A program made the position numbers and the translations under genes. The notes beneath the pieces are model-generated. The model searched no databases. It had not been told where the DNA came from and was given only the letters and a program-made list of their open reading frames with translations. This document shows, piece by piece, positions 11,147-53,953 of a DNA stretch of 64,000 bases. Source of the DNA: Candidatus Moraniibacteriota bacterium (GTDB lineage: Bacteria; Patescibacteriota; Minisyncoccia; Moranbacterales; UBA1568); contig JAGOBM010000001.1 in assembly GCA_017983435.1 (NCBI GenBank), positions 47,916 through 111,915 on the forward strand, written 5' to 3'. The stretch's first letter is position 1. Each line of letters starts with the position of its first letter.

Positions 11147-11219
11147 GGGCCCATAGCTCATTTGGTAGAGCACCTGCTTTGCACGCAGGGGGTGAGCGGT
11201 TCGAATCCGCTTGGGTCCA
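11147..11219 (+). tRNA. tRNA-Ala(TGC).
   Basis: Cloverleaf folds by hand; anticodon loop CTTTGCACG; G3:U70 alanine identity pair; no encoded CCA. Confidence 0.85.
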
Positions 11220-11296
11220 CCCTTGATTTTCTCGGATGCCTGGGGTACACTGGGCAACGTGGTGATCGAACCGGTTTTTTATTGTTGGAATTTCCC

Positions 11297-11370
11297 GGGC
11301 GATTAGCTCAGTTGGTTAGAGCGCGACACTGATAATGTCGAGGTCCCAAGTTCGAATCTTGGATCGCCCA
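11297..11370 (+). tRNA. tRNA-Ile(GAT).
   Basis: Cloverleaf; anticodon loop ACTGATAAT; acceptor stem GGGCGAT/ATCGCCC. Confidence 0.85.
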
Positions 11371-11395
11371 CACCGGCCATGTATGGCGGTATTAT

Positions 11396-11469
11396 AGCGG
11401 GGTAGAGCAGTCTGGCAGCTCGCTTGGCTCATAACCAAGAGGTCGGTGGTTCAAATCCACCCCCCGCAA
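11396..11469 (+). tRNA. tRNA-Met(CAT), possibly the initiator: A11:U24 pair and an unpaired 1-72 position.
   Basis: Cloverleaf; anticodon loop CTCATAA; D-stem GAGC/GCTC gives A11:U24. Confidence 0.65.
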
Positions 11470-11482
11470 CAAATGGAAAGAG

Positions 11483-11556
11483 GGCAGGGTAGCTCAGCCG
11501 GTTAGAGCACAGCACTCATAACGCTGAGGTCGTGGGTTCGATTCCCACCCCTGCTA
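11483..11556 (+). tRNA. Second CAT-anticodon tRNA, either elongator Met or tRNA-Ile2 (lysidine).
   Basis: Cloverleaf; anticodon loop CTCATAA; T-arm GTGGGTTCGATTCCCAC. Confidence 0.65.
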
Positions 11557-11580
11557 CACTTGAAAAAAGAACCAAGAACC

Positions 11581-11640
11581 AAGCTCCAATAACCAAGTAG
11601 CGTATTTCCTTGGTGATTGGATTTTGGTAATTGGAGCTCG
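11581..11640 (+). other. Stem-loop of about 60 nt between tRNAs (CAAGCTCCAATAACCAAG ... TTGGTAATTGGAGCTCG), possibly a processing or spacer structure.
   Basis: Near-perfect inverted repeat seen directly. Confidence 0.4.
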
Positions 11641-11652
11641 AATAGAGTCTAT

Positions 11653-11726
11653 GGGGGCGTAGCTCAGCTGGTTAGAGCGCCACACTGTCACTGTGGAGGT
11701 CGCGGGTCCGAATCCCGTCGCTCCCG
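11653..11726 (+). tRNA. tRNA-Asp(GTC).
   Basis: Cloverleaf; anticodon loop CTGTCAC; discriminator G73. Confidence 0.8.
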
Positions 11727-11735
11727 CCCATAGAA

Positions 11736-41179: not shown

Positions 41180-44100
41180 TTGGAAGAAATAGATTGTATG
41201 TCAGCAATAACAAACGTAGGGGCAAATACATTGTCATCTAATCTCAAAAGCATTCTTCCGAATTGTGATCGGGTAGATGCTCTTGTTGGTTATTTCTATT
41301 TTTCTGGATTCAAAGATCTTCATCATGAGCTCGAAGATAAGCAGATTCGGATTCTTGTCGGGATGGATATAGATAGGAAAATAATTGAGAAAGTGTCGAC
41401 ATTGAAGGATATTAATCTTGATTTCCATACGATCGAAACAAAAATTTCGTCTCGCTCAGGGGCGAAAGATGATTATATCGAAAACTTCTCAAAAGTTTTT
41501 AATGATACGGATTATTTTGATAATGAGGAGTCGCAAGTAGCCTTTGAAATATTTCTTGGGAAGATTCAGGATGGGAGTCTGCAGATTAAGAAGACTGCAC
41601 AAGCTAATCATTCTAAATTCTACATACTTCACAATAAACCGGAATTTTCCATGAATGGTATAACTCCGGGTATCGTTATTGAAGGTTCTAGTAATCTAAC
41701 CTTTTCTGGTTTGAAAGGACAAGGGGAGCATAATAGGATTTTGCAAGAAAAACATTATTATGATGATGATGTTCAGCGATTTGAAGAGTGCTGGAATGAT
41801 CCGGACAACATCATTATTACGGATTTGGACTCCTCAGAATCCTTTATCAAGGAGGTGAAGAGCAGAATCTGGCTTTATTCATTGCCGGATCCGCTTCTTA
41901 TGTACTACCGGGTGTTGAGCGAATACTTTTCCATCACGGAAGTCGAGGACATGAAGACCCCGAAGAATATAACCGGCGGGAAGTTTTCTGATCTTAAATA
42001 TCAGAAGGACGCGATCAATCTTGGTATTGACCGGATTAAGAAATTCGGCGGGGTGATAATTGCGGATGTTGTCGGACTCGGGAAAAGTATTGTGGCTTCC
42101 GCTATTGCTCATAACTTAGGCATGAAGACGCTTATCATTGCGCCACCACACCTTGAGAGCCAGTGGAAAGACTACATGGCAGAATTCGATTTCAAAGGTT
42201 TTGTGTATACGACTGGGAAAATCGAGGAGGCTCTCGAGAGACATGGGAGTGATGATGGAAAGTTATTGATTATTCTCGACGAAGCGCATAAGCACCGGAA
42301 CGAGGATACGGACAACTACAAAGTGCTCCATCGTCTCTGTGCTGGTCACTATGTGATGGCTCTTTCCGCGACTCCGTTCAATAATGATCCAAAAGATATC
42401 TATGCGCTCATAAAACTGTTCAGTACACCGGGACAGTCGACTATCCGGACCGTGGAGAATTTGAGCATGTCGTTCCATATGCTTTTCAAGCGATACAAGA
42501 CAGTGAGAAGGCAGCTCCGTAATACAGGAAAAGATGACAATGGCGAGGGGTCTACTATCAGAGTTGAACTTCATTCCATCGCTGATGAATTGCGTAGGAT
42601 GATAGAGCCGCTCATTATCCGGCGATCAAGATTGGATCTCGAGGAAATCGACGAGTACCGGAACGATCTGAAAGCGCAAGGAATTTCTTTCGCGAAGGTA
42701 CATGATCCAGAATTACTCGAGTACGAACTGGGAGATATGTTTGACCTGTATGTTGGGACACTCGAGAAAATCGCTCCGGAAGACAAGAGCACAAGTTTCA
42801 TCGGCGCGAGGTACAAGCCGGCTAGTTATATCCGGCAGGGGTCGGAGTTTATCAAGAAGCTTGTCGAGGGTGACGATGACGAGGATGGCGTATCTCCTGA
42901 AGAAAAACTCCATAGCATCAAACAGGCGCAGGTGAACATCACGAAGTTCATGCGAAGATTACTGGTGAGGCGCTTTGAAAGTTCAATCGGTGCGTTCAAA
43001 CTTTCACTGGGGAATATGATCACGTCTTCGGAAGTGATGCTGGATTGGTATGTGAATAGACATGAAGTTCCTATTTTCAAGAAGGGGGCGCTCCCGGATG
43101 TCGAAGATCTGAATGAGATGGACGATAAGGAACGGGAAGATCTTCTTTCAAAATTCGAGGATAAGGGACTCATCAGGATACCTGTTGCGGAACTTCAGCC
43201 GGAGTTTGAATCGCATTTGAGAAGCGATATAGTTCTGCTTAAAGAGATACAAGGGAAGTGGGCGCACAATTCTGATGATCCGAAATACGAATTCCTTAAG
43301 AAGAAATTGTCTGAAGCTATTTTTCAAGACAAGAAGCGGAAGATCATCATCTTTACGGAGTTTTCTGATACCGCCAATTACGTTTATCAAAAACTGAACG
43401 ATGATGGATTCAAGAGGGTATTCAAATATAGTTCGGAAGATTCCACTGATGAGAACAAGCGGATTATCCGGGCTAATTTTGATGCTGGGTTGGATGATGC
43501 GAAACAAACCGATGATTATGATGTCATTATCGCAACAGATGCGATTTCGGAAGGATTCAACCTGCACCGCGCCGGCATCGTCATCAACTATGATATTCCT
43601 TACAATCCGACGAGAGTGATCCAGCGTGTTGGTCGTATAAACCGCATCAACAAGAAGGTTTTTGACGAGTTGTATATATACAACTTTTTCCCAACTTTGA
43701 CCGGCGAGATGGAGACCCGGACGAAGGCGATCTCGACACTAAAGATGGATCTGATTCATACGCTTCTCGGGGAGGACACCAAGACATTGACATCCGATGA
43801 GGATTTGAAGAATTACTTCGCGAAGCAGTACAAGGAGGAAAATTCGAAAAGCGAGAAGCTCTCATGGGATGCTCCATACAGGAATACCTGGCTCTCCATA
43901 AAAGACGACCAGGATATAATGCGAAAAATCGCTGAAATTCCCCATCGATCAAGAATCGCAAGGAAAGCGAAAATTTCTGGTGTTGTGGCATTTGCCAAGA
44001 AGAGTGGAAACTACGTATTTGCGTTTGGTGAGAGTCCGGAGACTGTGCAGATTGTATCCCCGCAGATTGCTCTACCATTGTTCAATGAGGTCGCGGATTT

Positions 44101-44488
44101 AGAGCAACCTCTCCAGACGACTATCAACTTTGATCCAATTTATAAAATAGCCAAGGAACATATCTTTAAGGATAACACTCGATCGCCGGTTGATAGCGGA
44201 AGAAAACAGGACTCACTTAATAAAATTAAGATCCTTTCGGATAATTATCCTCAAGCCAAAGATCTTTGTATTGACCTGATTAGGGTTATTAAGGATCTTG
44301 ACGGTCTGCCGAACGGAGTGCTTAAGGAAATCGCAGAGCTAAAAATCGACAAGAACGATTTTGGAAAAGCGTTCCAGGAATTGAAGGAGCTCGTGCCACA
44401 CAAGTATCTCGAAAGCATATTTAGGACAGCGGATCGAGCCAATGACACTGGGAAGCTTATTGTCTTATCCGAAGAGTTGGTCGTATGA
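41180..44488 (+). CDS. Fusion of an N-terminal PLD-family (HKD) nuclease domain with an SNF2-family helicase, 1102 aa.
   Basis: HSKFYILHN...GSSNLT matches the HxK...GSxN PLD motif; SNF2 motifs ADVVGLGKS (I), ILDEAHKHRN (II), LSATPFNN (III), and helicase C-terminal motifs DAISEGFNLH and QRVGRINR. Confidence 0.85.
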   Translation: MEEIDCMSAITNVGANTLSSNLKSILPNCDRVDALVGYFYFSGFKDLHHELEDKQIRILVGMDIDRKIIEKVSTLKDINLDFHTIETKISSRSGAKDDYIENFSKVFNDTDYFDNEESQVAFEIFLGKIQDGSLQIKKTAQANHSKFYILHNKPEFSMNGITPGIVIEGSSNLTFSGLKGQGEHNRILQEKHYYDDDVQRFEECWNDPDNIIITDLDSSESFIKEVKSRIWLYSLPDPLLMYYRVLSEYFSITEVEDMKTPKNITGGKFSDLKYQKDAINLGIDRIKKFGGVIIADVVGLGKSIVASAIAHNLGMKTLIIAPPHLESQWKDYMAEFDFKGFVYTTGKIEEALERHGSDDGKLLIILDEAHKHRNEDTDNYKVLHRLCAGHYVMALSATPFNNDPKDIYALIKLFSTPGQSTIRTVENLSMSFHMLFKRYKTVRRQLRNTGKDDNGEGSTIRVELHSIADELRRMIEPLIIRRSRLDLEEIDEYRNDLKAQGISFAKVHDPELLEYELGDMFDLYVGTLEKIAPEDKSTSFIGARYKPASYIRQGSEFIKKLVEGDDDEDGVSPEEKLHSIKQAQVNITKFMRRLLVRRFESSIGAFKLSLGNMITSSEVMLDWYVNRHEVPIFKKGALPDVEDLNEMDDKEREDLLSKFEDKGLIRIPVAELQPEFESHLRSDIVLLKEIQGKWAHNSDDPKYEFLKKKLSEAIFQDKKRKIIIFTEFSDTANYVYQKLNDDGFKRVFKYSSEDSTDENKRIIRANFDAGLDDAKQTDDYDVIIATDAISEGFNLHRAGIVINYDIPYNPTRVIQRVGRINRINKKVFDELYIYNFFPTLTGEMETRTKAISTLKMDLIHTLLGEDTKTLTSDEDLKNYFAKQYKEENSKSEKLSWDAPYRNTWLSIKDDQDIMRKIAEIPHRSRIARKAKISGVVAFAKKSGNYVFAFGESPETVQIVSPQIALPLFNEVADLEQPLQTTINFDPIYKIAKEHIFKDNTRSPVDSGRKQDSLNKIKILSDNYPQAKDLCIDLIRVIKDLDGLPNGVLKEIAELKIDKNDFGKAFQELKELVPHKYLESIFRTADRANDTGKLIVLSEELVV

Positions 44489-47400
44489 TGAAATTCAACG
44501 AGAAATATCAACCCGATGATTTTCTGCAATTTTTGCAGGAGTTTTTACCGGAAGATTTTTCAGAAAAAGAGGAAGATATTGTCATCAACAAGGAACGATA
44601 TAAGGTGATAACCGAAGCTACGGTTCTTGGCTACTGTGGCTCGCTCGATCTTCATGTTTTGGAGATGGTCCATACCAGAGAAAAGGATCCTCGGGTTTCT
44701 ATTACTACAGATGCGTTCAAGATTCTTGCTGATAATTGGATTCATCGTGCGCTGGTCGTTTTTAGGAACAAGGATACCGAGAATTATCGGTTTTCATATT
44801 TGACTATCACTCTTGATCTAAATGATAAGAGTAAAGCAGTTAAAAAGTATTCAAATGCACGGAGATATTCTTTCTATCTAGGAGCGAATGCAAAGGTGCG
44901 GACGCCGGAGCAGCAGTTGATCAAGAAAGGGAGAATTAAGGATGTCGACGATCTGCTCACCCGGTTCTCGGTGGAGGTGGTCAATAAGCAATTCTATCTT
45001 GAGGTGGCCAAATTTTTTGATGAGCTTGTATCGGGTGAGGGTAAAAATTTGTCGCTTCCGAGCGTATCGCAGGAAAACGTAAATGTTAGGAAGAGCTTTG
45101 CTGTCCGGTTGATCGGCCGCCTGATGTTCTGCTGGTTTTTGAAACAGAAGAAATCTGAATCAGGCCAGCTTATTCCCGATGAATTGCTTTCTTCTGATGT
45201 CGCTAGGAAGACAAGTGGTTATTATCACGGCATTCTTGAGCCGCTCTTTTTTGAGGTGCTGAACACGAGTATTAACACTCGTGGCATCAGGAGCGAGTTG
45301 TTCGATAGGGTGCCGTATTTGAATGGTGGACTTTTTAATCCTCAGCCGGAGGATTACTACGAATTAGACGGAAGTACATTTTTTTCGAAGTATATCAATA
45401 CGCTTTCGATAAGTGATCAGTGGTTCGTGGATTTCTTCGAACTCCTCGAACTGTATAACTTCACCATCGATGAAAACACGGTGTTCGATCAGGAGCTTTC
45501 CGTGGATCCGGAGATGCTCGGGAGGATCTTCGAGAATTTGCTTGCCGAGATAAATCCGGAAACCGGGAGCAGCGAGCGGAAACGGACTGGGAGTTTTTAC
45601 ACCCCACGGCAGATCGTGGAGTATATGGTCGACCAGTCGCTCATAGAATACTTCAAGACCAAGACGAGCATCGACGAAGCGAAACTCGCCGCGCTTGTGA
45701 GTTACGATCTTAATGATGATGCTGGCTATCCATTGTCGGATGATGAGAAACAGAAAGTGGTGATGGCGATTGAGACCCTGAAACTTCTTGATCCGGCCTG
45801 TGGATCTGGCGCATACCCGATTGGGGCACTCCAGAAGATCGTTTATATCCTCCAGATCGTCGATCCGGACTGCAAACTCTGGCTTAATGAGAAGCTGAAA
45901 GACGTCCCAGATCTGTACAAACAGAAGATCATTAATGAAGTTCACTCAAACCCATTTGATTACACGCGCAAGCTCGATGTGATTAAAAATTCCATTTTCG
46001 GAGTGGATATCCAGCCGATTGCTGTGGACGTATCTCGTTTGCGGTGTTTTCTTACACTTGTTGTGGAATCGGAGATTGACGATATAAAGCCAAATCGAGG
46101 CATTGAACCACTGCCAAACCTTGATTTCAAATTCGTATGCGCCAATACGTTGATTGGTCTCCCGAAGGCGGAGTCGAGCGGATTGTTTGATGACCATTCT
46201 GGAATTTCAGAACTTTCAAAGATCATGTCAGAGTATTTCTCCTGTAATAGTCAGAGAAAAAATGAAATTCGTCTTAAGTTTCTTCATGTTCAAAAAGATA
46301 TCCTCGAGAAAACTATTTCTGCCTTTGGAAAAAATACTGGAGAGCTCACGCTGAGGCTCGCCACATGGAATCCGTTCAGTAATAATTCTAATAGCTGGTT
46401 TGATCCGGAGTGGATGTTTGGTATTACAGAAAAGTTCGATATTGTAATCGGAAATCCTCCTTATAATGTTAAATTATCTGGCGAGGAGAGAAAATTTTAT
46501 AAAGGAAATTATATAGGGGTAAAGTCTGGAAGACAGGATACCGCTGCAATTTTTGTTGAGGCAGCTTCGCGGTTTAGCAATAACGAATCTATTGTATGTT
46601 TTATCATCCCATACCGGCTGTTCTCTCGAAAAAGAAATCATGGAGCTTTCCAAGAGTATGTTCTGAAAAATTCTTCAATAAATGAGATAGTTTATCTAGG
46701 AAAGGATGCTGGGTTTGACACTGCAAAAGATGAATTTATGATCGTGGTGTTTTCGAAATATGAACACGATAATTCTATAAGAATTTGCAGTAAGCCCGAT
46801 TTCAAGAATCTAAATAGACTAGATTTTTCGCGTGTCGCCCAGTGTATATTCGAGAAAAGTAATGAAATTAATATAAATGTTTCTAAGTTTGACACGCGAA
46901 TTTTATCAAAGATAGAAAAAGGGAATCCCATTTTATCAGACATATGTTATGTCAAAGATGGAATAGTCCCGTATATTCGGGAGAAAATGATAAGCCAAAG
47001 AAAAATTGATGATCGTTATGTAAAGTTCGCTGGTGTTTCTGGAACGTATAAGCTTGATAGGTACGCATTTACCGCAGATGAGATGTATTTATGCTATGAC
47101 ATATTAGAAGCAAAAAAGTATATATCGGATATTAACGAATTAAGAAAAGTGCAGTTAAGGGATAAGGCAATCTTCTTGCAAGATGAGAAAATCATTACTT
47201 CTCAGAATAGCGCGAAATTAAAAGGATCGATTGATACTGAACAGTATTTCGTATCTAATTCGATACACAGTACATACCTCAAAGAAGAATGTAAGGACAA
47301 GTATAAACTATCCTTTATTTTAGGTTGTATCAATTCTTCCTTGCTAAATTATTACTATAACTCGAAGCGGTTGAAGGGAGTGGATTTGCACCCACAGATA

Positions 47401-47610
47401 TTAATTACAACATTGAAACTATTGCCGATTCCAGCGATCATTGGGGAGCGAGTTGTGGTGGTTAAAGAAGTTATTTCTTTAGTTGAGGATGTGATGAGAA
47501 TGAAAAAGTCTGGTACAAATACTGAGGATTTAGAAAACAAGATTGATGAGCTTGTTATGGATCTTTACGGACTCAATGATGAAGAAAAGGAAGTTGTAAG
47601 AAATTCGTAG
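44485..47610 (+). CDS. Gamma-class N6-adenine DNA methyltransferase of the Eco57I/MmeI/PglX type, with an N-terminal domain of about 350 aa and a C-terminal TRD-like region; 1041 aa. Translationally coupled to the upstream gene by an ATGA overlap.
   Basis: GSFYTPRQIVEYMV (motif X), LLDPACGSGAYP (motif I), VIGNPPYNV (motif IV). Confidence 0.85.
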   Translation: MMKFNEKYQPDDFLQFLQEFLPEDFSEKEEDIVINKERYKVITEATVLGYCGSLDLHVLEMVHTREKDPRVSITTDAFKILADNWIHRALVVFRNKDTENYRFSYLTITLDLNDKSKAVKKYSNARRYSFYLGANAKVRTPEQQLIKKGRIKDVDDLLTRFSVEVVNKQFYLEVAKFFDELVSGEGKNLSLPSVSQENVNVRKSFAVRLIGRLMFCWFLKQKKSESGQLIPDELLSSDVARKTSGYYHGILEPLFFEVLNTSINTRGIRSELFDRVPYLNGGLFNPQPEDYYELDGSTFFSKYINTLSISDQWFVDFFELLELYNFTIDENTVFDQELSVDPEMLGRIFENLLAEINPETGSSERKRTGSFYTPRQIVEYMVDQSLIEYFKTKTSIDEAKLAALVSYDLNDDAGYPLSDDEKQKVVMAIETLKLLDPACGSGAYPIGALQKIVYILQIVDPDCKLWLNEKLKDVPDLYKQKIINEVHSNPFDYTRKLDVIKNSIFGVDIQPIAVDVSRLRCFLTLVVESEIDDIKPNRGIEPLPNLDFKFVCANTLIGLPKAESSGLFDDHSGISELSKIMSEYFSCNSQRKNEIRLKFLHVQKDILEKTISAFGKNTGELTLRLATWNPFSNNSNSWFDPEWMFGITEKFDIVIGNPPYNVKLSGEERKFYKGNYIGVKSGRQDTAAIFVEAASRFSNNESIVCFIIPYRLFSRKRNHGAFQEYVLKNSSINEIVYLGKDAGFDTAKDEFMIVVFSKYEHDNSIRICSKPDFKNLNRLDFSRVAQCIFEKSNEININVSKFDTRILSKIEKGNPILSDICYVKDGIVPYIREKMISQRKIDDRYVKFAGVSGTYKLDRYAFTADEMYLCYDILEAKKYISDINELRKVQLRDKAIFLQDEKIITSQNSAKLKGSIDTEQYFVSNSIHSTYLKEECKDKYKLSFILGCINSSLLNYYYNSKRLKGVDLHPQILITTLKLLPIPAIIGERVVVVKEVISLVEDVMRMKKSGTNTEDLENKIDELVMDLYGLNDEEKEVVRNS

Positions 47611-47628: not shown

Positions 47629-48501
47629 ATGGAAAGTCAGCTTTTTTCAGAAAAATCTTTGGCGGATCATTTATTTGATATCTGTTATGATGGTCCATCT
47701 TTTGATGGTGCCATGGAAATTTCTTTGTTAAAAAATGAAATAGCTGGTCTTGATAATGCTTTACGTATAGCAGCGCAAGTTTTAGCAAAACATAAAAAAA
47801 TCGACTTTCGTTCTGGTGATGTAGAGATTTATATTGAGGCTTTTGAGAGGGGTTCTTTTAAGAAAAAAGTTAAAGTTGTTTTAAAATCTTTACAGGATTT
47901 AAACCAGTATCAAGGTGCGATAGCTCTGGGGGCGTTAGTTATTAGTGTGATGACATTCGTAAAACAACAGGAGACTTTAGATATAGACCATATACCACCG
48001 GAAATAATGGCTCAGTTTAAGACTCAAGTGGAGTATGATTTGTTACAGAATAGAGAATTTCTTAAGTCTGTTTCTGATATTGTTGCCCCATTGAATCAAA
48101 GCGGTGATCATTTACATATAGCCGTCCCGAAAAATTCTGAAACCGATATAGATTACTTGGATAAAGAAAAATTTATTAAATTAGCACTACCCAGCGTGGT
48201 TGAAGGGGTTGATGGCGATAAACACGAGATAATCGTAGGGCGGATTAATCGCGTTGATCTCGATGCTACTATTCGCCATATTGGATTCAAGGTAAAAGGA
48301 GAGGGGTCTTCGATTCCGGCAACGCTTTCAACTCAGGTAAAATCTTCTGTTAGTATGAATGACTTACTGGGGAAGTGGGTGGAAATGGGTGCTTTAACTA
48401 CGTATAAAGGCGATATCAGAGAGCATATCGAGATTGAGGATATAAAAATAGTAGAACAACAAAAACTCCCCATTGATTTTAATAATGAAGGAATCGAGTG
48501 A
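47629..48501 (+). CDS. Hypothetical protein, 290 aa, island cargo.
   Basis: ORF with AT-rich codon usage matching the island. Confidence 0.5.
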   Translation: MESQLFSEKSLADHLFDICYDGPSFDGAMEISLLKNEIAGLDNALRIAAQVLAKHKKIDFRSGDVEIYIEAFERGSFKKKVKVVLKSLQDLNQYQGAIALGALVISVMTFVKQQETLDIDHIPPEIMAQFKTQVEYDLLQNREFLKSVSDIVAPLNQSGDHLHIAVPKNSETDIDYLDKEKFIKLALPSVVEGVDGDKHEIIVGRINRVDLDATIRHIGFKVKGEGSSIPATLSTQVKSSVSMNDLLGKWVEMGALTTYKGDIREHIEIEDIKIVEQQKLPIDFNNEGIE

Positions 48502-48546
48502 TTTGGCGTTAAAAAATTCGTTGTAAGTTAGGGATTACTAGGCAAT

Positions 48547-49368
48547 ATGCGTTTTTCTCAAAGAATAGGTAAATCTTCAATAAGGACAGAAATTCAAGTT
48601 GATTCGATGGATGATCGACTAAGGAACCGACTTTTTAATGTTGTGAAAGACTATATAGATCAACAATTGGCCTTCTGGGATGCGGGACGATATATTAAGC
48701 ATGATTTTATTGTTCAATATTGTGATTGTTTTGGTAAGTTACATAAGAGTGATGACTACGAAGATTTTTTTAAAGAATTATTCCAAAAAATATTTGTTAA
48801 TGAAGATATTTTTTTCTTTTATGATTTTATAGAATTTGTAGTTCGGCGGGGCGCACATAGTAAAGAAATTCTTATTCATGAATTCAATCGTATTTTTGAA
48901 GAAGAAAAATCAGCGTACAAACTTGATATTAGTGGGTCTTTAATACAAATTACAGATGATATTGAGCTTGAAGAGATTGATTTGGCAATAGCGAGTGCGA
49001 GCGAGTATAAGAGTGTACAAGAGCATTTGGAGAAGGCTAGGGGATTTTTCTCTAGCCGTGAAAATCCTGATTACAAGAAATCTATCGAAGAATCTGTTCA
49101 TGCTATAGAGGCAATGGCTAAAATAGTAGTAAAAGATAAAAATGCTATTTTGAGTGATGCGTTGAAGAAGATAAATGATTTGCACCCAGCTTTGAATCAG
49201 AGTTTGCAAAAGTTGTATGCCTTTGCCGGGGATGCAAGCGGTATTCGTCATAGTAACAAAGAGCCTGTTGATTCTGAAAAAGAACATTCTGTAGGAATTG
49301 GTGAGGCAAGAATGATTCTTGTTTTGAGTCACTCAATGATTAATTATTTGAAAGAGAAGTTTTTGTAA
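48547..49368 (+). CDS. Hypothetical protein, 273 aa, possibly AbiJ-N-terminal-like plus a HEPN-like C-terminus (ARMILVLSH, Rx6H).
   Basis: N-terminus MRFSQRIGKSSIR and the C-terminal Rx6H motif; weak manual similarity only. Confidence 0.45.
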   Translation: MRFSQRIGKSSIRTEIQVDSMDDRLRNRLFNVVKDYIDQQLAFWDAGRYIKHDFIVQYCDCFGKLHKSDDYEDFFKELFQKIFVNEDIFFFYDFIEFVVRRGAHSKEILIHEFNRIFEEEKSAYKLDISGSLIQITDDIELEEIDLAIASASEYKSVQEHLEKARGFFSSRENPDYKKSIEESVHAIEAMAKIVVKDKNAILSDALKKINDLHPALNQSLQKLYAFAGDASGIRHSNKEPVDSEKEHSVGIGEARMILVLSHSMINYLKEKFL

Positions 49369-49652
49369 TGAAAAAGAATGATAAGAGAGAATTGAATCGA
49401 GGATTTGGGCTTACTATTATAGGGGCCTTGCTTGGATTTTTCATAAGCGTGACAGCATCGGGAGTGTTTGAAATTTCAATGCATGGCCGGTCTGGTCGGG
49501 CAGGCTGGATTACTCTTTGTTATGGTGTAGTCTCTTTGTTTCTGATTTCGTTATTTTCGTACCGTATAGAAAATTTAGATCGGGTAAAAAACATGTCCGA
49601 TGGAGAAATTTTTAAAGATTATTTGAAAACCGTGCTTCATTTTAAGAAATAG
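49368..49652 (+). CDS. Small two-TM membrane protein, 94 aa; its ATG overlaps the upstream TAA.
   Basis: TAATG overlap; two hydrophobic helices. Confidence 0.4.
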   Translation: MKKNDKRELNRGFGLTIIGALLGFFISVTASGVFEISMHGRSGRAGWITLCYGVVSLFLISLFSYRIENLDRVKNMSDGEIFKDYLKTVLHFKK

Positions 49653-49670
49653 TTACGTAACTGATTACGT
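49651..49670. repeat. Right 20-bp direct repeat AGTTACGTAACTGATTACGT.
   Basis: Identical to 40922..40941. Confidence 0.85.
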
Positions 49671-49678
49671 AAACCGGT

Positions 49679-50074
49679 ATGCAAGCCTGCGAGACGGTCG
49701 GGGAATATATGGAGGGGCTGCCTGAGGGAGTGCGGGCGGAGTTCACTCTGCTCTGGCAGACAGTCCGGGAGCTGGTACCAGGGGGCGAGGAAGTGATCCG
49801 CTACGGGATGCCGACTATGCGGGTGGTGGGGAAGAATCTCGTCCACTGCGCCGTCATGAAAGAGCATTTCGGATTCTATCCGACCCCTTCGGGCGTGAAG
49901 GCATTTGAGAGCGAGCTTCTTGGGAAATATCGGTATTCCGAGGGTGCTATCCAGTTTCCGTTCGGCGAGCGGCTGCCGCTCCCGCTTGTCCGCAAGATCG
50001 TGCGCTTCCGCCTCTCCGAAGAATCTTCCCTCCCAGAATCCCTCGAAATCCCACCCTCCAAAAAAGTAACATAA
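49679..50074 (+). CDS. DUF1801/YdhG-like protein.
   Basis: Pattern HCAVMKEHFGFYPTPSGVKAFESELL; 131 aa. Confidence 0.55.
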   Translation: MQACETVGEYMEGLPEGVRAEFTLLWQTVRELVPGGEEVIRYGMPTMRVVGKNLVHCAVMKEHFGFYPTPSGVKAFESELLGKYRYSEGAIQFPFGERLPLPLVRKIVRFRLSEESSLPESLEIPPSKKVT

Positions 50075-50075
50075 T

Positions 50076-50097
50076 TATACGGCCGTGGAATTATGTT
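50076..50097. promoter_or_regulatory. Palindromic element TAATTATACGGCCGTGGAATTATG upstream of the PaaX-like gene; a related copy lies downstream of it.
   Basis: The arm CGTGGAATTATG is shared with 50759..50783. Confidence 0.4.
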
Positions 50098-50154
50098 ACA
50101 ATATAAAAAAGAGAAGATGTATTTTTCGGATACGATATAAGGTGCAGAAGATGT

Positions 50155-50760
50155 ATGTATAAGTTCGGCCCGGTTCAACAGAAGCTCCTCCTCCTGCTTG
50201 TCGCTGGAATCGGGTTGGGATTGGAGACTTCCTCTATCCGCTATTATCAGAAGCTCGGAGCGATAGTGAGGGAATGGAAACGTATCGATCAGCGAAGTAT
50301 CAAGCGTTCCGTAAGGCGCTTGTGCAGTGAGAAGCTGGTCAGGGAAATCATCCAGCCTGATGGATCATTCAAGCTCGTGCTTACGGAGGAGGGGAAGAGG
50401 CAGGCTCGCATCCAATTTCTTTTCGACAATTCGATCCGTTTCAAGAATTCGAGGCGATGGGATAAGAAATGGCGTATCGTCATGTTTGATATCCCGGAAA
50501 AGGAGAGAGGATTCCGCGATATTCTGCGCGAGCATCTGCGTGAATTGAATTTTTATAAGCTGCAGCAGAGTGTCTTCGCTTCCCCGAATCCGTGCGAGAA
50601 GCAGATAGCGGAACTGGTATCGTTGTATAGAGCGGAATCGTTGGTGCGTGTAATGACAGTCGATTGGATCGATAACGAGAAGAAGCTCAGGGATTATTTT
50701 TTTGGCCAGAAATCTTCCCGGAAAATTACTCAGAAAACCGAATATGAAACGGTATCATAA
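50155..50760 (+). CDS. PaaX-like transcriptional regulator: N-terminal wHTH plus a C-terminal PaaX_C-like domain.
   Basis: WDKKWRIVMFDIPEKERGFRDILREHLRELNFYKLQQSVFASP resembles the PaaX C-terminal signature. Confidence 0.45.
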   Translation: MYKFGPVQQKLLLLLVAGIGLGLETSSIRYYQKLGAIVREWKRIDQRSIKRSVRRLCSEKLVREIIQPDGSFKLVLTEEGKRQARIQFLFDNSIRFKNSRRWDKKWRIVMFDIPEKERGFRDILREHLRELNFYKLQQSVFASPNPCEKQIAELVSLYRAESLVRVMTVDWIDNEKKLRDYFFGQKSSRKITQKTEYETVS

Positions 50761-50783
50761 TTCCACGGTCGTGGAATTATGAT
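50759..50783. promoter_or_regulatory. Perfect palindrome AATTCCACGGTCGTGGAATT (20 bp) overlapping the stop of the PaaX-like gene.
   Basis: Seen directly; related to the upstream copy. Confidence 0.4.
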
Positions 50784-50986
50784 ACTTTTAAAAATGCGGG
50801 ATTATTCTTAATGGGGACAGATATGGAAAAATCCTACCAGCAGTGCCAGTCGTGCAGCAGATCCCGAAGAGCTGGTAAGATAGGCTGATCCGGAGCGGTA
50901 AGTAGATCGAATCAGGGGCTTGACTTCCGGGTGTATACTGGAAGAGTCAATGAGGGGGGGTGTAATTCGTAACGCAGAACATGCTT

Positions 50987-51214
50987 ATGGAAACTACGCC
51001 AGTGAGACGTCTGTATCGGAGCGCTACGGAGCGGGTCTGCGCGGGAGTGTGCGGCGGTCTGGGGGAATACTGGGCGATCGACCCGGTCGTGCTGCGGCTC
51101 TTGTGGACATTTATCACGGTCTTTACCGGGTTTGCGCCCGGCATCATCGTCTATATCCTCGCGGTCTTCATCATCCCAGTGAAGCCTCTGGAACTGCCAG
51201 TTGCTCATCAATAA
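50987..51214 (+). CDS. PspC-domain membrane protein.
   Basis: LYRSATERVCAGVCGGLGEYWAIDPVVLRLLW PspC signature followed by a TM helix. Confidence 0.7.
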   Translation: METTPVRRLYRSATERVCAGVCGGLGEYWAIDPVVLRLLWTFITVFTGFAPGIIVYILAVFIIPVKPLELPVAHQ

Positions 51215-51425
51215 TTTTTAACAGGACGAGTATGGATAAGATCAAAATCGAGAATCATGCGTGCTCAGGCGGCATATGGATAGTGGCCTGGATGTTCACC
51301 GTCGGATTCTTGCAGCTGACATTCTGGCAGGGAGTGCAGGCGATCGTCATCTGGCCGTACTATCTCGGCGATGCTGTCCGTCCGATGTTTTTCGAGTAGA
51401 TCAGGAACTTTTCCGTGGGGTGCTT

Positions 51426-51731
51426 ATGCCAAAAGATATATTCAAAATACAGGCAGCAGTATGGCTGTATCCGGGGGAGAATGCCAACTGGCATTTTGTA
51501 AATGTATCGAAAGAGGTATCAGCTGAGATCCGAGAGCGTTTCGGGGGGAAATCGAGAGGGTGGGGATCCTTGCCGGTGACGGTGACTCTCGGTCAGACGA
51601 CTTGGGATACTTCGATTTTTCCCGATAAGAAATCCGCTACCTATCTCCTGCCGCTCAAGGCGGCGGTGCGAACCAAGGAGACGGTTCGGGCTGGTGACAG
51701 CGTATCCTTATCGATACGGATCCGCGCCTAA
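51426..51731 (+). CDS. DUF1905-family small protein.
   Basis: GSLPVTVTLGQTTWDTSIFP pattern; 101 aa. Confidence 0.5.
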   Translation: MPKDIFKIQAAVWLYPGENANWHFVNVSKEVSAEIRERFGGKSRGWGSLPVTVTLGQTTWDTSIFPDKKSATYLLPLKAAVRTKETVRAGDSVSLSIRIRA

Positions 51732-51873
51732 GGTGTCTTTTTTTTGGTCTTCAAATCCCATCCCTTCCACTACGGAAGGGGTTTTTGATATATCATTTGA
51801 CGGTTTTTCCGTATCTTCCTATACTGTATGCAGATGGTAGTGTAAGTCTGGTAAACAAACTTTCATACGTCGT

Positions 51874-52722
51874 ATGGAGAAAGAAATCATATCGCGTCTG
51901 CATAAGCACTTCGAAGAATACGCCCATGACCGGGATGGGGTGGAGTTCTGGTATGCTCGGGAGCTCCAGGATTTGCTTGGATATGATGAGTGGCGGAATT
52001 TTGAAGGGGTTATTGATAAGGCGAAGATAGCCTGTAGAATGGCTCAACAGAAAGATTCTGATCATTTTGTTGACGCCAACAAAACGATACCGATGCCGAA
52101 AGGCGCCAGCAAGGAAGTACTGGATATCATGCTGACGCGCTACGCCTGCTATCTCATCGCCCAGAATGGCGATCCGCGCAAGGATGAGATCGCTTTTGCA
52201 ATGACGTATTTTGCCATCCAGACCCGCAAGCAGGAGGTGGTCGAACAGCGGCTGGCCGAGTGGGAGCGGCTGTACGCGCGGGAGAAGCTGACACTTTCGG
52301 AAAAGGAACTCTCCGGCGTGCTGTACGAGCGCGGTGTCGACAGCCATGGATTCGCGCGTATCCGAAGTCGTGGGGATCAGGCTCTATTCGGTGGGAGCAC
52401 GACGCAGGAGATGAAGTTCAAGCTGCGGGTGCCATCGACTCGCGCCTTGGCGGATTTCCTCCCTGCAGTGACGATCAAGGCCAAGGATCTGGCTACGGAG
52501 ATCACCAATCACAATATCAAGCAGGACGGGACGCTCCGAGGGGAGCCGATCATCGCAAGTGAGCACGTGAAGAACAATCGGAATATGCGCGAGATGCTCG
52601 TCAAAAGCGGTATCTATCCGGAAGCGCTCCCGGCAGAAGAGGATATCCAGAAGCTGGGGCGTCGGCTGAAATCCGAAGGCAAGAAGCTGTCGAAACAGGT
52701 GAAGGTATTGAAGAAAAAATAA
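51874..52722 (+). CDS. dinD: DNA-damage-inducible protein D.
   Basis: Strong similarity to the remembered E. coli DinD sequence: EFWYARELQDLLGYDEWRNFEGV and MLTRYACYLIAQNGDP. Confidence 0.8.
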   Translation: MEKEIISRLHKHFEEYAHDRDGVEFWYARELQDLLGYDEWRNFEGVIDKAKIACRMAQQKDSDHFVDANKTIPMPKGASKEVLDIMLTRYACYLIAQNGDPRKDEIAFAMTYFAIQTRKQEVVEQRLAEWERLYAREKLTLSEKELSGVLYERGVDSHGFARIRSRGDQALFGGSTTQEMKFKLRVPSTRALADFLPAVTIKAKDLATEITNHNIKQDGTLRGEPIIASEHVKNNRNMREMLVKSGIYPEALPAEEDIQKLGRRLKSEGKKLSKQVKVLKKK

Positions 52723-52745
52723 TTTGTCGGGTTAAGCAGAAGAAT

Positions 52746-53396
52746 ATGGAAATTCTGACACAGAAGCAGAAGATCGTGCTGCAAGCTATCAAGCAGTTCC
52801 TCGCCGAGCATGGCAAGATGCCGACGGTGCGGGAGATCAAAGAAGAGAGCTCACGGCTCGGGTTGCAGCTCAAGAGCTTGCGCAGCTTCTTCATCTATCT
52901 CAATGCGCTTGAGGAGAAGGGGTATATCGAGCGGACCTCCGAAGATCGGGGGATACTGCTCAAGGGGGTGACGAGCGAGAATTTCGTCCAAGTGCCGGTT
53001 TTCGGATCGGCGAGCGCCGGCGCGGCGGCGATGTTTGCGGATCAGTATGTCGAGGGGTATCTCCGGGTCTCCAAGCGTCTGGTGAAAGATCGGAATATCT
53101 TCGCCGTGCAAGTCAACGGCACGTCGATGAACAAAGCAGTGGTCAATGGCAAGACCATCGAGAGCGGCGATTTCGTCCTGGTGGATGGCAGCTCTCGGGA
53201 ATACAAGAACAACGATCGGGTGCTGGTGGTGATCGACGGCTTGGCGACGGTGAAGACCTATCGGACCGTGGACGGCAAGACGATCGCGCTCGTACCGGAA
53301 TCGACCGACAAGAAGCATCAGCCGATCTTCCTCTCGGACGATGACAATTTCGTCATCAACGGTCTCGTGGTGAATGTACTCAAGCTGCCGAAATAA
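52746..53396 (+). CDS. lexA: LexA repressor (S24 peptidase).
   Basis: N-terminal wHTH, cleavage-site region VPVFGSASAGAA, and Ser/Lys dyad NGTSM...K. Confidence 0.85.
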   Translation: MEILTQKQKIVLQAIKQFLAEHGKMPTVREIKEESSRLGLQLKSLRSFFIYLNALEEKGYIERTSEDRGILLKGVTSENFVQVPVFGSASAGAAAMFADQYVEGYLRVSKRLVKDRNIFAVQVNGTSMNKAVVNGKTIESGDFVLVDGSSREYKNNDRVLVVIDGLATVKTYRTVDGKTIALVPESTDKKHQPIFLSDDDNFVINGLVVNVLKLPK

Positions 53397-53404
53397 TTTT
53401 TTTT

Positions 53405-53953
53405 ATGTACGTTTTTATCGATGAATCCGGTACGAACAAAGGAAGCGGATACTCGGCTTTTGCATTGGTCTATATAGCGGTGGACGATTATAGGATTTTT
53501 GATCGTGCCGTGATAGAAATCGAAAAGACTCTCGGGATCGAGAGTTTCCATTGGGCTAAGAATGCTCCACTAGTCCGGGCGAAGTTTTTTGAAGGTATGA
53601 TGAAACTTGATTTCAAATCGAAGATTGCGATTGTGCGTAATCCGTCGCTGCCTGACAGCGAGATGGAGCGTCTCTTGCCCCATATGCTGATAGAAAAAAA
53701 TATCCGATCGATTGTTTTGGATGGGAAAAAACCGAAGTGGTATCAGAAAAAACTCAAAAAGATATTGCGCGATCGGGGTGTTACGACGAAAAAGTTGAAG
53801 ATAGAAAATGATAGGAGTTCCGGGGGTATTCGTGCAGCGGATGCGATAGCGGGTTTGGCGCGGGCTTACTATGATGGGAAGGGCGGATCCGTAGTCCGGG
53901 AGCGGTTCGAACAGCTCAAACGAAAGAAGAAGATAATGCTTATTTTAGAATAA
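53405..53953 (+). CDS. DUF3800-family protein.
   Basis: N-terminal MYVFIDESGT motif. Confidence 0.6.
   Translation: MYVFIDESGTNKGSGYSAFALVYIAVDDYRIFDRAVIEIEKTLGIESFHWAKNAPLVRAKFFEGMMKLDFKSKIAIVRNPSLPDSEMERLLPHMLIEKNIRSIVLDGKKPKWYQKKLKKILRDRGVTTKKLKIENDRSSGGIRAADAIAGLARAYYDGKGGSVVRERFEQLKRKKKIMLILE

Follow-up and report, generated by a model that had tools for sequence, protein, structure and literature searches.

The PDC families, which comprise 145 candidates, were assembled from uncharacterised genes found inside BREX, DISARM and Type I restriction-modification (R-M) loci (Payne et al., bioRxiv 10.1101/2024.01.29.577857). One of the domains relevant here, AbiJ-NTD4, is an alpha+beta domain of ~160 amino acids (aa) that occurs fused to AbiJ-type HEPN domains, and N-terminal domains of this kind have been proposed to sense phage components and to restrain the toxin (PMC3710099). 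The Abi_C homologue SadR has been shown experimentally to be a HEPN RNase giving phage defence, with R225, N226 and H232 all essential, and the mutations that allow phages to escape from SadR, or from lactococcal AbiJ, fall in phage single-strand annealing proteins. Here we compare with these systems three consecutive genes, termed A, B and C, in a 64,000-nucleotide (nt) stretch of a Candidatus Moraniibacteriota bacterium (contig JAGOBM010000001.1, positions 47,916 to 111,915), the whole of which is referred to as the window. The best explanation, in which we place somewhat better than even confidence, is that each of A, B and C is an independent accessory gene on the 3' end of an R-M-like operon, composed of a PLD-SNF2 nuclease/translocase gene and an Eco57I-like methyltransferase gene, and that all of them lie in a horizontally acquired low-GC island of this Candidatus Moranbacteria genome.

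Gene A spans 47629-48501 (290 aa), gene B 48547-49368 (273 aa) and gene C 49368-49652 (94 aa); in the open reading frame (ORF) listing each begins with ATG, and the three genes, all features within them and the two core genes lie on the + strand. A sequence-only reading of the window had already described three tightly packed ORFs of these lengths following the methyltransferase, and both the listing and the sequence bear it out exactly, including the TAATG at 49366-49370 in which the stop of B and the start of C are shared. The gaps measure 18 nt between the methyltransferase and A and 45 nt between A and B, and B and C overlap by 1 nt. Homologues of A, B and C are present in other metagenomes, and the three are therefore genuine genes, not chance ORFs. 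The first gene of the island encodes a PLD (HKD) domain fused to an SNF2 helicase (41180-44488; Pfam PLDc_2, SNF2-rel_dom and Helicase_C) and matches the PADLOC models C3a139 'HKD+Snf2' and DrmD-like; it is followed by an Eco57I/Type IIG-like N6-adenine methyltransferase with a TaqI_C specificity domain (44485-47610; Pfam and PADLOC). The island extends from ~41.0 to 49.65 kb, with A, B and C at its 3' end, and its GC content at third codon positions (GC3) is 0.49 in the SNF2 gene, 0.45 in the methyltransferase gene, 0.30 in A, 0.27 in B and 0.36 in C, compared with 0.59-0.78 in the five flanking genes measured. A consensus-based terminator scan returned no terminator-like site at the methyltransferase-A, A-B or B/C junctions and a single weak terminator-like hairpin within the coding sequence of C, and co-transcription of A, B and C with the R-M-like operon is probable.

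Do the three genes belong together? Their tight same-strand packing (45-nt gap, TAATG overlap) and their shared, very low GC3 would suit a single three-gene system made of an OB-fold (oligonucleotide/oligosaccharide-binding) sensor, a HEPN effector and a membrane component, as would two arrangements seen elsewhere, namely an A homologue followed, with a 4-nt overlap, by a protein of a different HEPN family (DUF3644) in locus L017, and a B homologue followed by an overlapping membrane protein in locus L026. The neighbourhoods of the homologues have already largely refuted this proposal. Among 23 A, 12 B (L024-L030 and L034-L038) and 3 C loci, the trio, or any pair from it, was seen in the window only: no B-family gene occurs in any of the 23 A loci, no A-family gene in the B loci among L024-L034, the range covered by the A-profile scan, and neither A nor B in any of the three C loci. 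Moreover, the homologues of C sit in syntenic regions with different upstream cargo. We therefore take A, B and C to be independent add-ons and consider a single three-gene system highly improbable. The suggestion that they form conserved cargo of the core pair fares no better, given these same counts. Of the three genes, A alone recurs with a homologue of the methyltransferase, and does so once (L021).

In most of its loci, A lies beside R-M genes. The 23 loci encoding A relatives that were fetched reduce to 20 distinct ones and derive mostly from metagenome-assembled genomes of the Candidate Phyla Radiation (CPR)/Patescibacteria, plus a Bathymodiolus endosymbiont. In 15 of 19 informative loci, with the window counted, an R-M gene lies within ~1.5 kb of A, nearly always upstream and on the same strand. 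At least eight R-M architectures are represented: Type I systems, ordered hsdM(-hsdS)-A (L005, L017, L018, L022, L023); an N6_N4 methyltransferase with an IceA endonuclease and a Dam methyltransferase, a Type II arrangement (L001, L002, L010); a methyltransferase with an EcoO109I endonuclease (L016; a related methyltransferase in L004); a large, 867-aa N6_N4 methyltransferase (L003); a 1,622-aa Type ISP enzyme with a PIF1 helicase (L006); PDDEXK, Vsr and C5 methyltransferase genes, here downstream of A (L012); a methyltransferase with an HKD protein (L021); and the window. Gaps of 1-4 nt or overlaps of 4 nt around A in L006, L017, L018 and L023 suggest translational coupling there, and in L017 and L018 it stands between hsdM and hsdS; in the window, A and B are terminal to the R-M genes and not flanked by them on both sides. 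In L021 (1-5192) a methyltransferase 45% identical to that of the window is followed by a 368-aa protein and then by the A homologue; the 368-aa protein has no Pfam match, and its HKD motif aligns with the PLD domain of the window (pairwise E=0.001). L021 is thus a helicase-less analogue of the window core, with the proviso that its contig begins inside the methyltransferase gene, so that an SNF2 gene could have stood upstream.

Two of these loci show further particulars. The A homologue of L017 (2996-4845) lies inside the Type I operon and is followed directly by the DUF3644 protein mentioned above; the order of A and then a HEPN gene parallels that of the window, and the HEPN families are unrelated. 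On a Gracilibacteria contig (L007, 9596-10414) the A homologue looks fragmented under table 11, presumably owing to UGA being read as glycine (code 25) in that lineage and not because it is a pseudogene.

The R-M-embedded family of A is rare: when 1.84 billion proteins were searched exhaustively with its profile, 100 representatives came up at E<=1e-3, and full-length members nearly all measure 250-330 aa; 15 members made up the set for profile and hydropathy comparisons. The 290-aa protein had been set aside in the sequence-only reading as having no recognisable motif, and the Pfam check indeed gave no match for it, but the OB fold described here, together with the strong R-M association, overturns that verdict. 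In the AlphaFold model (predicted local distance difference test, pLDDT, 78) an N-terminal alpha+beta region leads into a central hydrophobic helix (95-113), and the C-terminal part adopts an OB fold. By hydropathy and the model, the hydrophobic stretch covers residues 93-113 (47905..47967) and is conserved family-wide, its Kyte-Doolittle maxima (19-residue windows; range 1.4-2.2) coinciding in position in 15 of 15 members; it may anchor A in the membrane or else be a core helix buried in the fold. The OB domain (residues ~196-275; 48214..48453), of the nucleic-acid-binding type according to Foldseek and conservation, contains five invariant residues (D210, D212, F220, K221 and G226) and two near-invariant ones (W250 and H266), and its Foldseek matches in the PDB (probability 1.00, E about 7e-4 to 4e-3, root-mean-square deviation 3-5 Å over ~85 columns) comprise the OB domain of the ExoVII large subunit (8txr), the N-terminal OB domain of LysRS, the single-stranded DNA-binding protein (SSB) Rim1, RPA, Teb1 and Stn1-Ten1. 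Judging from this model, the C-terminal OB fold of A most likely serves to bind single-stranded nucleic acid.

The nearest named families of A raise the question of whether it might instead be a passenger derived from a phage or another mobile element, for instance a structural protein, with no role in defence. Within the set of 15, 14 members match the NCBIfam model LAPAL_fam (NF053583; best E=1.2e-10), annotated as 'putative phage structural protein', and 13 match phrog_3243 (E=3.5e-6), all of these being weak similarities; A of the window reaches 32.7 bits against a LAPAL_fam cut-off of 60. The viral structure library BFVD contains a full-length fold match to an uncharacterised 270-aa protein from a Myoviridae-labelled contig (E=1.5e-10), partial matches to a protein of Leptospira phage LE1 and, in keeping with the OB domain, matches to phage SSBs and LEF-3. 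Nevertheless, the profile of A found no relative on 2.9 million viral contigs, and tblastn none in 50,697 phage records or 72,556 plasmid records; the neighbours of A are R-M genes and not phage morphogenesis genes; and 7 of the 15 members match the PADLOC defence-candidate model PDC-S42 (best 1.7e-8; none at E<=0.01 for A of the window). Prophages, moreover, often carry defence genes themselves. A phage-derived passenger is accordingly a very unlikely identity for A, and we return to A as a separate accessory gene. Filing A under LAPAL_fam was considered and rejected, as distant A representatives were tested against NCBIfam and none of them matches that model. No literature was found on PDC-S42 or on a 'LAPAL motif'.

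The relatives of B are better defined. The sequence-only reading had reported that B opens with MRFSQRIGKSSIR and ends with ARMILVLSH, both of which are present, the latter near the C-terminus, and had likened its first half to an AbiJ N-terminal domain. The latter proposal is upheld: residues 1-149 (48547..48993) score 92.9 bits with Pfam AbiJ_NTD4 (PF18863; cut-off 34, E=3.5e-26), covering positions 1-151 of the 152 in the profile, and would make up a sensor or regulatory domain, as proposed for such domains. Forty-six homologues came to light, and the AbiJ_NTD4 match recurs in all 44 members of the family alignment (29-78% identity); plasmid-borne relatives carry the PGAP label 'AbiJ-NTD4 domain-containing protein'. 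Over its full length B matches two PADLOC models of PDC-S32, PDLC04997 (E=3.2e-68; residues 1-271 on profile positions 7-280 of 285) and PDLC04996 (E=8e-57). By sequence similarity, B is thus a new member of a known candidate defence family, of which no mention was found in the literature searched. The form of B in the protein collection (P0001) has 253 aa and starts at M21. Since F3, S4 and G8 are conserved in the family, where the MRFSQR... segment (48547-48606) is among the most conserved parts, and since the AbiJ_NTD4 match runs from residue 1 at profile position 1, the 273-aa start is favoured and the 253-aa form appears truncated.

The second half of B, residues 150-273 (48994..49368), is modelled by AlphaFold (AF2; pLDDT 86) as a helical domain with helices at 155-168, 176-195, 214-228 and 251-272 and a short insert at 202-207. 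Its best Foldseek matches in the PDB are HEPN proteins, led by 1wol (probability 0.98, TM-score 0.65 on the target) and followed by 2q00, the sacsin HEPN domain, TM0613, AbiV, 4nqf and RnlA. Two acidic residues in predicted helix 2 (176-195), E182 and E188 (49090..49110), are invariant in the 44-sequence alignment, and B of the window has E188-x3-K192; an acidic residue in helix 2, often as Ex3[KR], is a described HEPN feature (PMC3710099). Just after helix 3 comes the family motif G232-I-R234-H235 (49240..49251), in which H235 is invariant, R234 is present in at least 90% of sequences and G232 is conserved. By alignment, model and the rule for motif position, R234-H235 sits where the HEPN active site canonically lies, but its R and H are direct neighbours, and the B family lacks the Rx4-6H expected at the end of helix 3 or the start of the helix 3-4 loop; this spacing makes the motif non-canonical, though its position and context fit. 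As modelled, then, the C-terminal half of B is HEPN-like by fold with a non-canonical site. The earlier suggestion of HEPN-like features therefore survives as regards the fold, and 6 of the 44 relatives weakly match Abi_C (best E=1.6e-4), but the window protein itself yields no Abi_C match. The 'Rx6H' that had been read as the HEPN motif, R255...H262 (49309..49332), was rejected: alignment and model place it inside helix 4 (251-272), it is not conserved, and most relatives have K and S/A/C at these positions (family consensus D-A-K-x-M-L-V-S-C-S-A-F). A comparison by hhalign of the B family with the DUF3644 HEPN protein of L017 gave no relationship, with a single-sequence target that renders the result uninformative.

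Like A, B keeps company with R-M genes, most clearly among its close relatives (44-78% identity), which lie in or beside R-M systems in five of five contexts, the window included. In the other four, the B homologue follows an Eco47II endonuclease and a C5 methyltransferase, separates hsdM from hsdS in a complete Type I operon with hsdR (P0005), adjoins a C5 methyltransferase, or precedes a ResIII/HI_1054 helicase and an Mrr-like nuclease. The HEPN-like gene behind an R-M-like core, as first noticed in the window, is thus real and recurs for the close relatives of B. Distant relatives are mostly stand-alone, next to YoeB or Fic genes, or within mixed defence islands. In L026 (3600-4556) P0006, the B homologue, runs into an overlapping gene for a 318-aa protein that has hydrophobic segments in its N-terminal part and no sequence relationship to C; a 289-aa gene near P0006 was considered as an A homologue and found not to be one.

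Such intimate arrangements would be expected if A and/or B were dependent guards or accessory subunits of the R-M enzymes, comparable to PrrC, that are held inactive by the R-M complex and freed when a phage inhibits restriction. The position of P0005 between hsdM and hsdS, and that of A in L017 and L018, where it is fitted between the same two genes with 4-nt overlaps or gaps, speak for this possibility, as do the statements that PrrC is almost exclusively embedded in Type I R-M loci (cited in Payne et al.) and that HEPN genes are functionally coupled with R-M operons (PMC3710099). Against a specific protein-protein partnership stands the fact that the partners have no mechanism in common (Type I, II, ISP, IIG-like, III-like and PLD-SNF2), and this diversity makes dependence of the PrrC kind less likely. 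Furthermore, distant B-family members occur alone next to YoeB/Fic genes or in mixed defence islands, and neither A nor B has the ABC ATPase domain of PrrC. We consequently regard the guard model as rather unlikely and retain the view of A and B as independent accessory genes.

How might these accessory genes work? B would be a candidate defence factor of the AbiJ type that works as a single protein; by analogy, an infection cue would be sensed by, or would restrain, its AbiJ-NTD4 domain, whereupon the HEPN-like domain could act on RNA through the R234-H235 site, aided by E182 and E188, and thereby stop growth. RNase activity is ascribed to B by that same analogy with characterised HEPN proteins. 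The A family, which appears to have been inserted repeatedly into R-M operons of many types, most likely acts as a separate, self-contained defence or R-M-accessory factor, perhaps membrane-anchored through its hydrophobic helix, and C would be a small two-transmembrane protein at the edge of the island site with no functional tie to B. Most likely, A and B reached the operon separately, as independent candidate defence genes, which would place a second layer behind restriction, abortive and HEPN-type in the case of B and based on nucleic-acid binding in the case of A. Layered defence at this locus is plausible.

Several observations weigh against this interpretation. If the helix of A crosses the membrane, the lysine-rich stretch on its N-terminal side would put the OB domain outside the cell, a poor fit with intracellular nucleic-acid binding. 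As judged from profile scores, A seems only remotely related to PDC-S42, LAPAL_fam and phrog_3243, with the window protein falling below the cut-offs; PDC-S32 and PDC-S42 themselves both hold candidate status only; and the co-transcription deemed probable is read from spacing and a consensus terminator scan. For B, every HEPN match obtained with Foldseek has E>0.1, the window protein shows no match to Abi_C (PF14355) at E<=1, and the 44 family sequences contain neither a conserved H 4-6 residues past R234 nor a conserved R 4-6 residues before H235. The last two findings are also what one would anticipate if the C-terminal domain of B were an inactive HEPN-like module with a binding or regulatory role, or not a HEPN domain at all, in which case B would not be an RNase effector. 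This possibility gains from SadR, whose R225 and H232 (RNEYGDAH) have six residues between them compared with the adjacent R-H of B, from a search of PDB sequences with the B-family profile that produced a chance match only, and from the statement that motif-less HEPN domains may be binding domains (PMC3710099). On the other hand, the invariance of H235, E182 and E188 and the near-constancy of R234, all at HEPN active-site positions (helix 3's end and helix 2), speak against an inactive module, and active HEPN families with alternative arrangements, AbiV and Parep1/8, are documented (PMC3710099). We thus deem an inactive B improbable and continue to favour B as a candidate RNase effector.

Gene C (49368..49652) does have two predicted transmembrane segments, as proposed earlier: by hydropathy, Kyte-Doolittle 19-residue windows exceed 1.6 in two segments centred on about 12-38 and 45-65. 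Only two homologues were found (78% and 60% identical), in loci that are syntenic with the flanks of the window and contain neither A nor B. L031 goes on with homologues of window 50920-51399, and L032 contains homologues of the DUF1801 gene (49679-50074) and the DUF3800 gene (53405-53953) of the window, whereas the low-GC cargo upstream of C differs, consisting of a gene for a restriction-type endonuclease-domain protein in L032 and of NOV_C-like and DUF3800 genes in L031. Synteny combined with different upstream cargo indicates that C stands at the edge of a variable island site rather than being a partner of B, a role that was rejected also because C homologues occur in loci without B. The site at window 49368-53953, compared with L031 and L032, looks like a variable defence hot spot.

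Within the methyltransferase gene, GC falls from ~45-50% to ~33-36% at roughly 46,200 and remains low through A and B. The methyltransferases of the window and L021 are 45% identical over residues 41-736 and 17-20% identical in the C-terminal ~300 residues. Together, the drops in GC and in similarity suggest that the 3' third of the gene (46200-47610) is a swapped target-recognition module, possibly gained along with A and B. At the other end, immediately after C, the self-complementary octamer TTACGTAA occurs twice, with CTGA in between (49653-49672), and takes up most of the 26-nt gap that separates the C stop from the start of the DUF1801 gene, precisely where low GC gives way to high GC; the pair could be an operator or a recombination junction. 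Just beyond the island, a 201-aa protein (50155-50760) has the central Cas2-like domain of PaaX (E=4e-22) and weak Cas2 matches, and no CRISPR context was found in its immediate neighbourhood. The island borders showed neither a tRNA gene nor an integrase; five clustered tRNA genes at 11147-11730 (Ala, Ile, two Met and Asp) are distant from the island.

What does the locus add? CPR/Patescibacteria have tiny genomes with few recognised defences besides R-M. Here, two candidate families ride on R-M operons in this group, as the 'guilt-by-embedding' picture predicts, and the pattern of A and B, on the same strand as R-M genes, in or adjoining their operons and at multiple unrelated loci, fits that picture. 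Current understanding is not overturned; members and targets are added to a known pattern. The new information is the OB fold of A and its repeated placement with R-M genes, C being incidental. The most original result is that A associates with at least eight R-M architectures unrelated to one another, which nominates an OB-fold protein as a new R-M-linked factor. B offers a clear test case for PDC-S32 proteins as RNases despite the missing canonical Rx4-6H, with R234, H235, E182 and E188 as the key residues. A more far-reaching joint reading, which we put forward tentatively and think doubtful, is that the A family represents a previously undescribed, R-M-coupled class, found largely in CPR/Patescibacteria, of OB-fold nucleic-acid sensors, possibly membrane-anchored and compatible with any restriction type, and that in the PDC-S32 family the HEPN active site would take a new 'RH-dyad' form. 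If this were true, A might detect single-stranded DNA or RNA products of restriction, or the failure of restriction, and trigger a second response.

Set beside the known systems, B corresponds most closely to PDC-S32, with a full-length match, the same length, the same two-domain layout and the R-M embedding typical of the PDC set. Its CPR subfamily (>=44% identity) differs in lacking the longer N-terminal-domain insertions of the main family and in being found with R-M genes in each of the five contexts, distant members being mostly stand-alone. With AbiJ and SadR, B shares a C-terminal HEPN-type helical domain in a single-protein factor of ~270-280 aa, but SadR and Abi_C proteins carry the canonical R-Phi-x3-5-H (RNEYGDAH), in contrast to the adjacent R-H of the B family, which has no conserved downstream H. 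In a survey of Abi_C proteins, AbiJ-NTD4 was present on 3 of 2,815, and PADLOC matched none of those three, so PDC-S32 and Abi_C barely overlap in sequence. A, for its part, resembles PDC-S42, LAPAL_fam and phrog_3243 in length (~290 aa) and over its N-terminal ~190 residues, and differs from LAPAL_fam in that distant A representatives do not match that model and the window protein stays below its cut-off. PrrC and RloC offer the precedent of an R-M operon that harbours a HEPN-type effector gene as a second, abortive layer behind restriction; unlike them, B has no ABC ATPase, carries another N-terminal domain and is found with R-M partners of many types, and the embedding in Type I R-M that characterises PrrC is seen for homologues of A and B only, not in the window. 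Finally, HEC-08 (DUF3644; Payne et al. 2024) is a validated HEPN protein embedded in a helicase-methylase defence system, which belongs to another HEPN family than B and relies on a canonical Rx4-6H with an essential H128, and whose family includes the DUF3644 gene that follows the A homologue in the Type I operon of L017.

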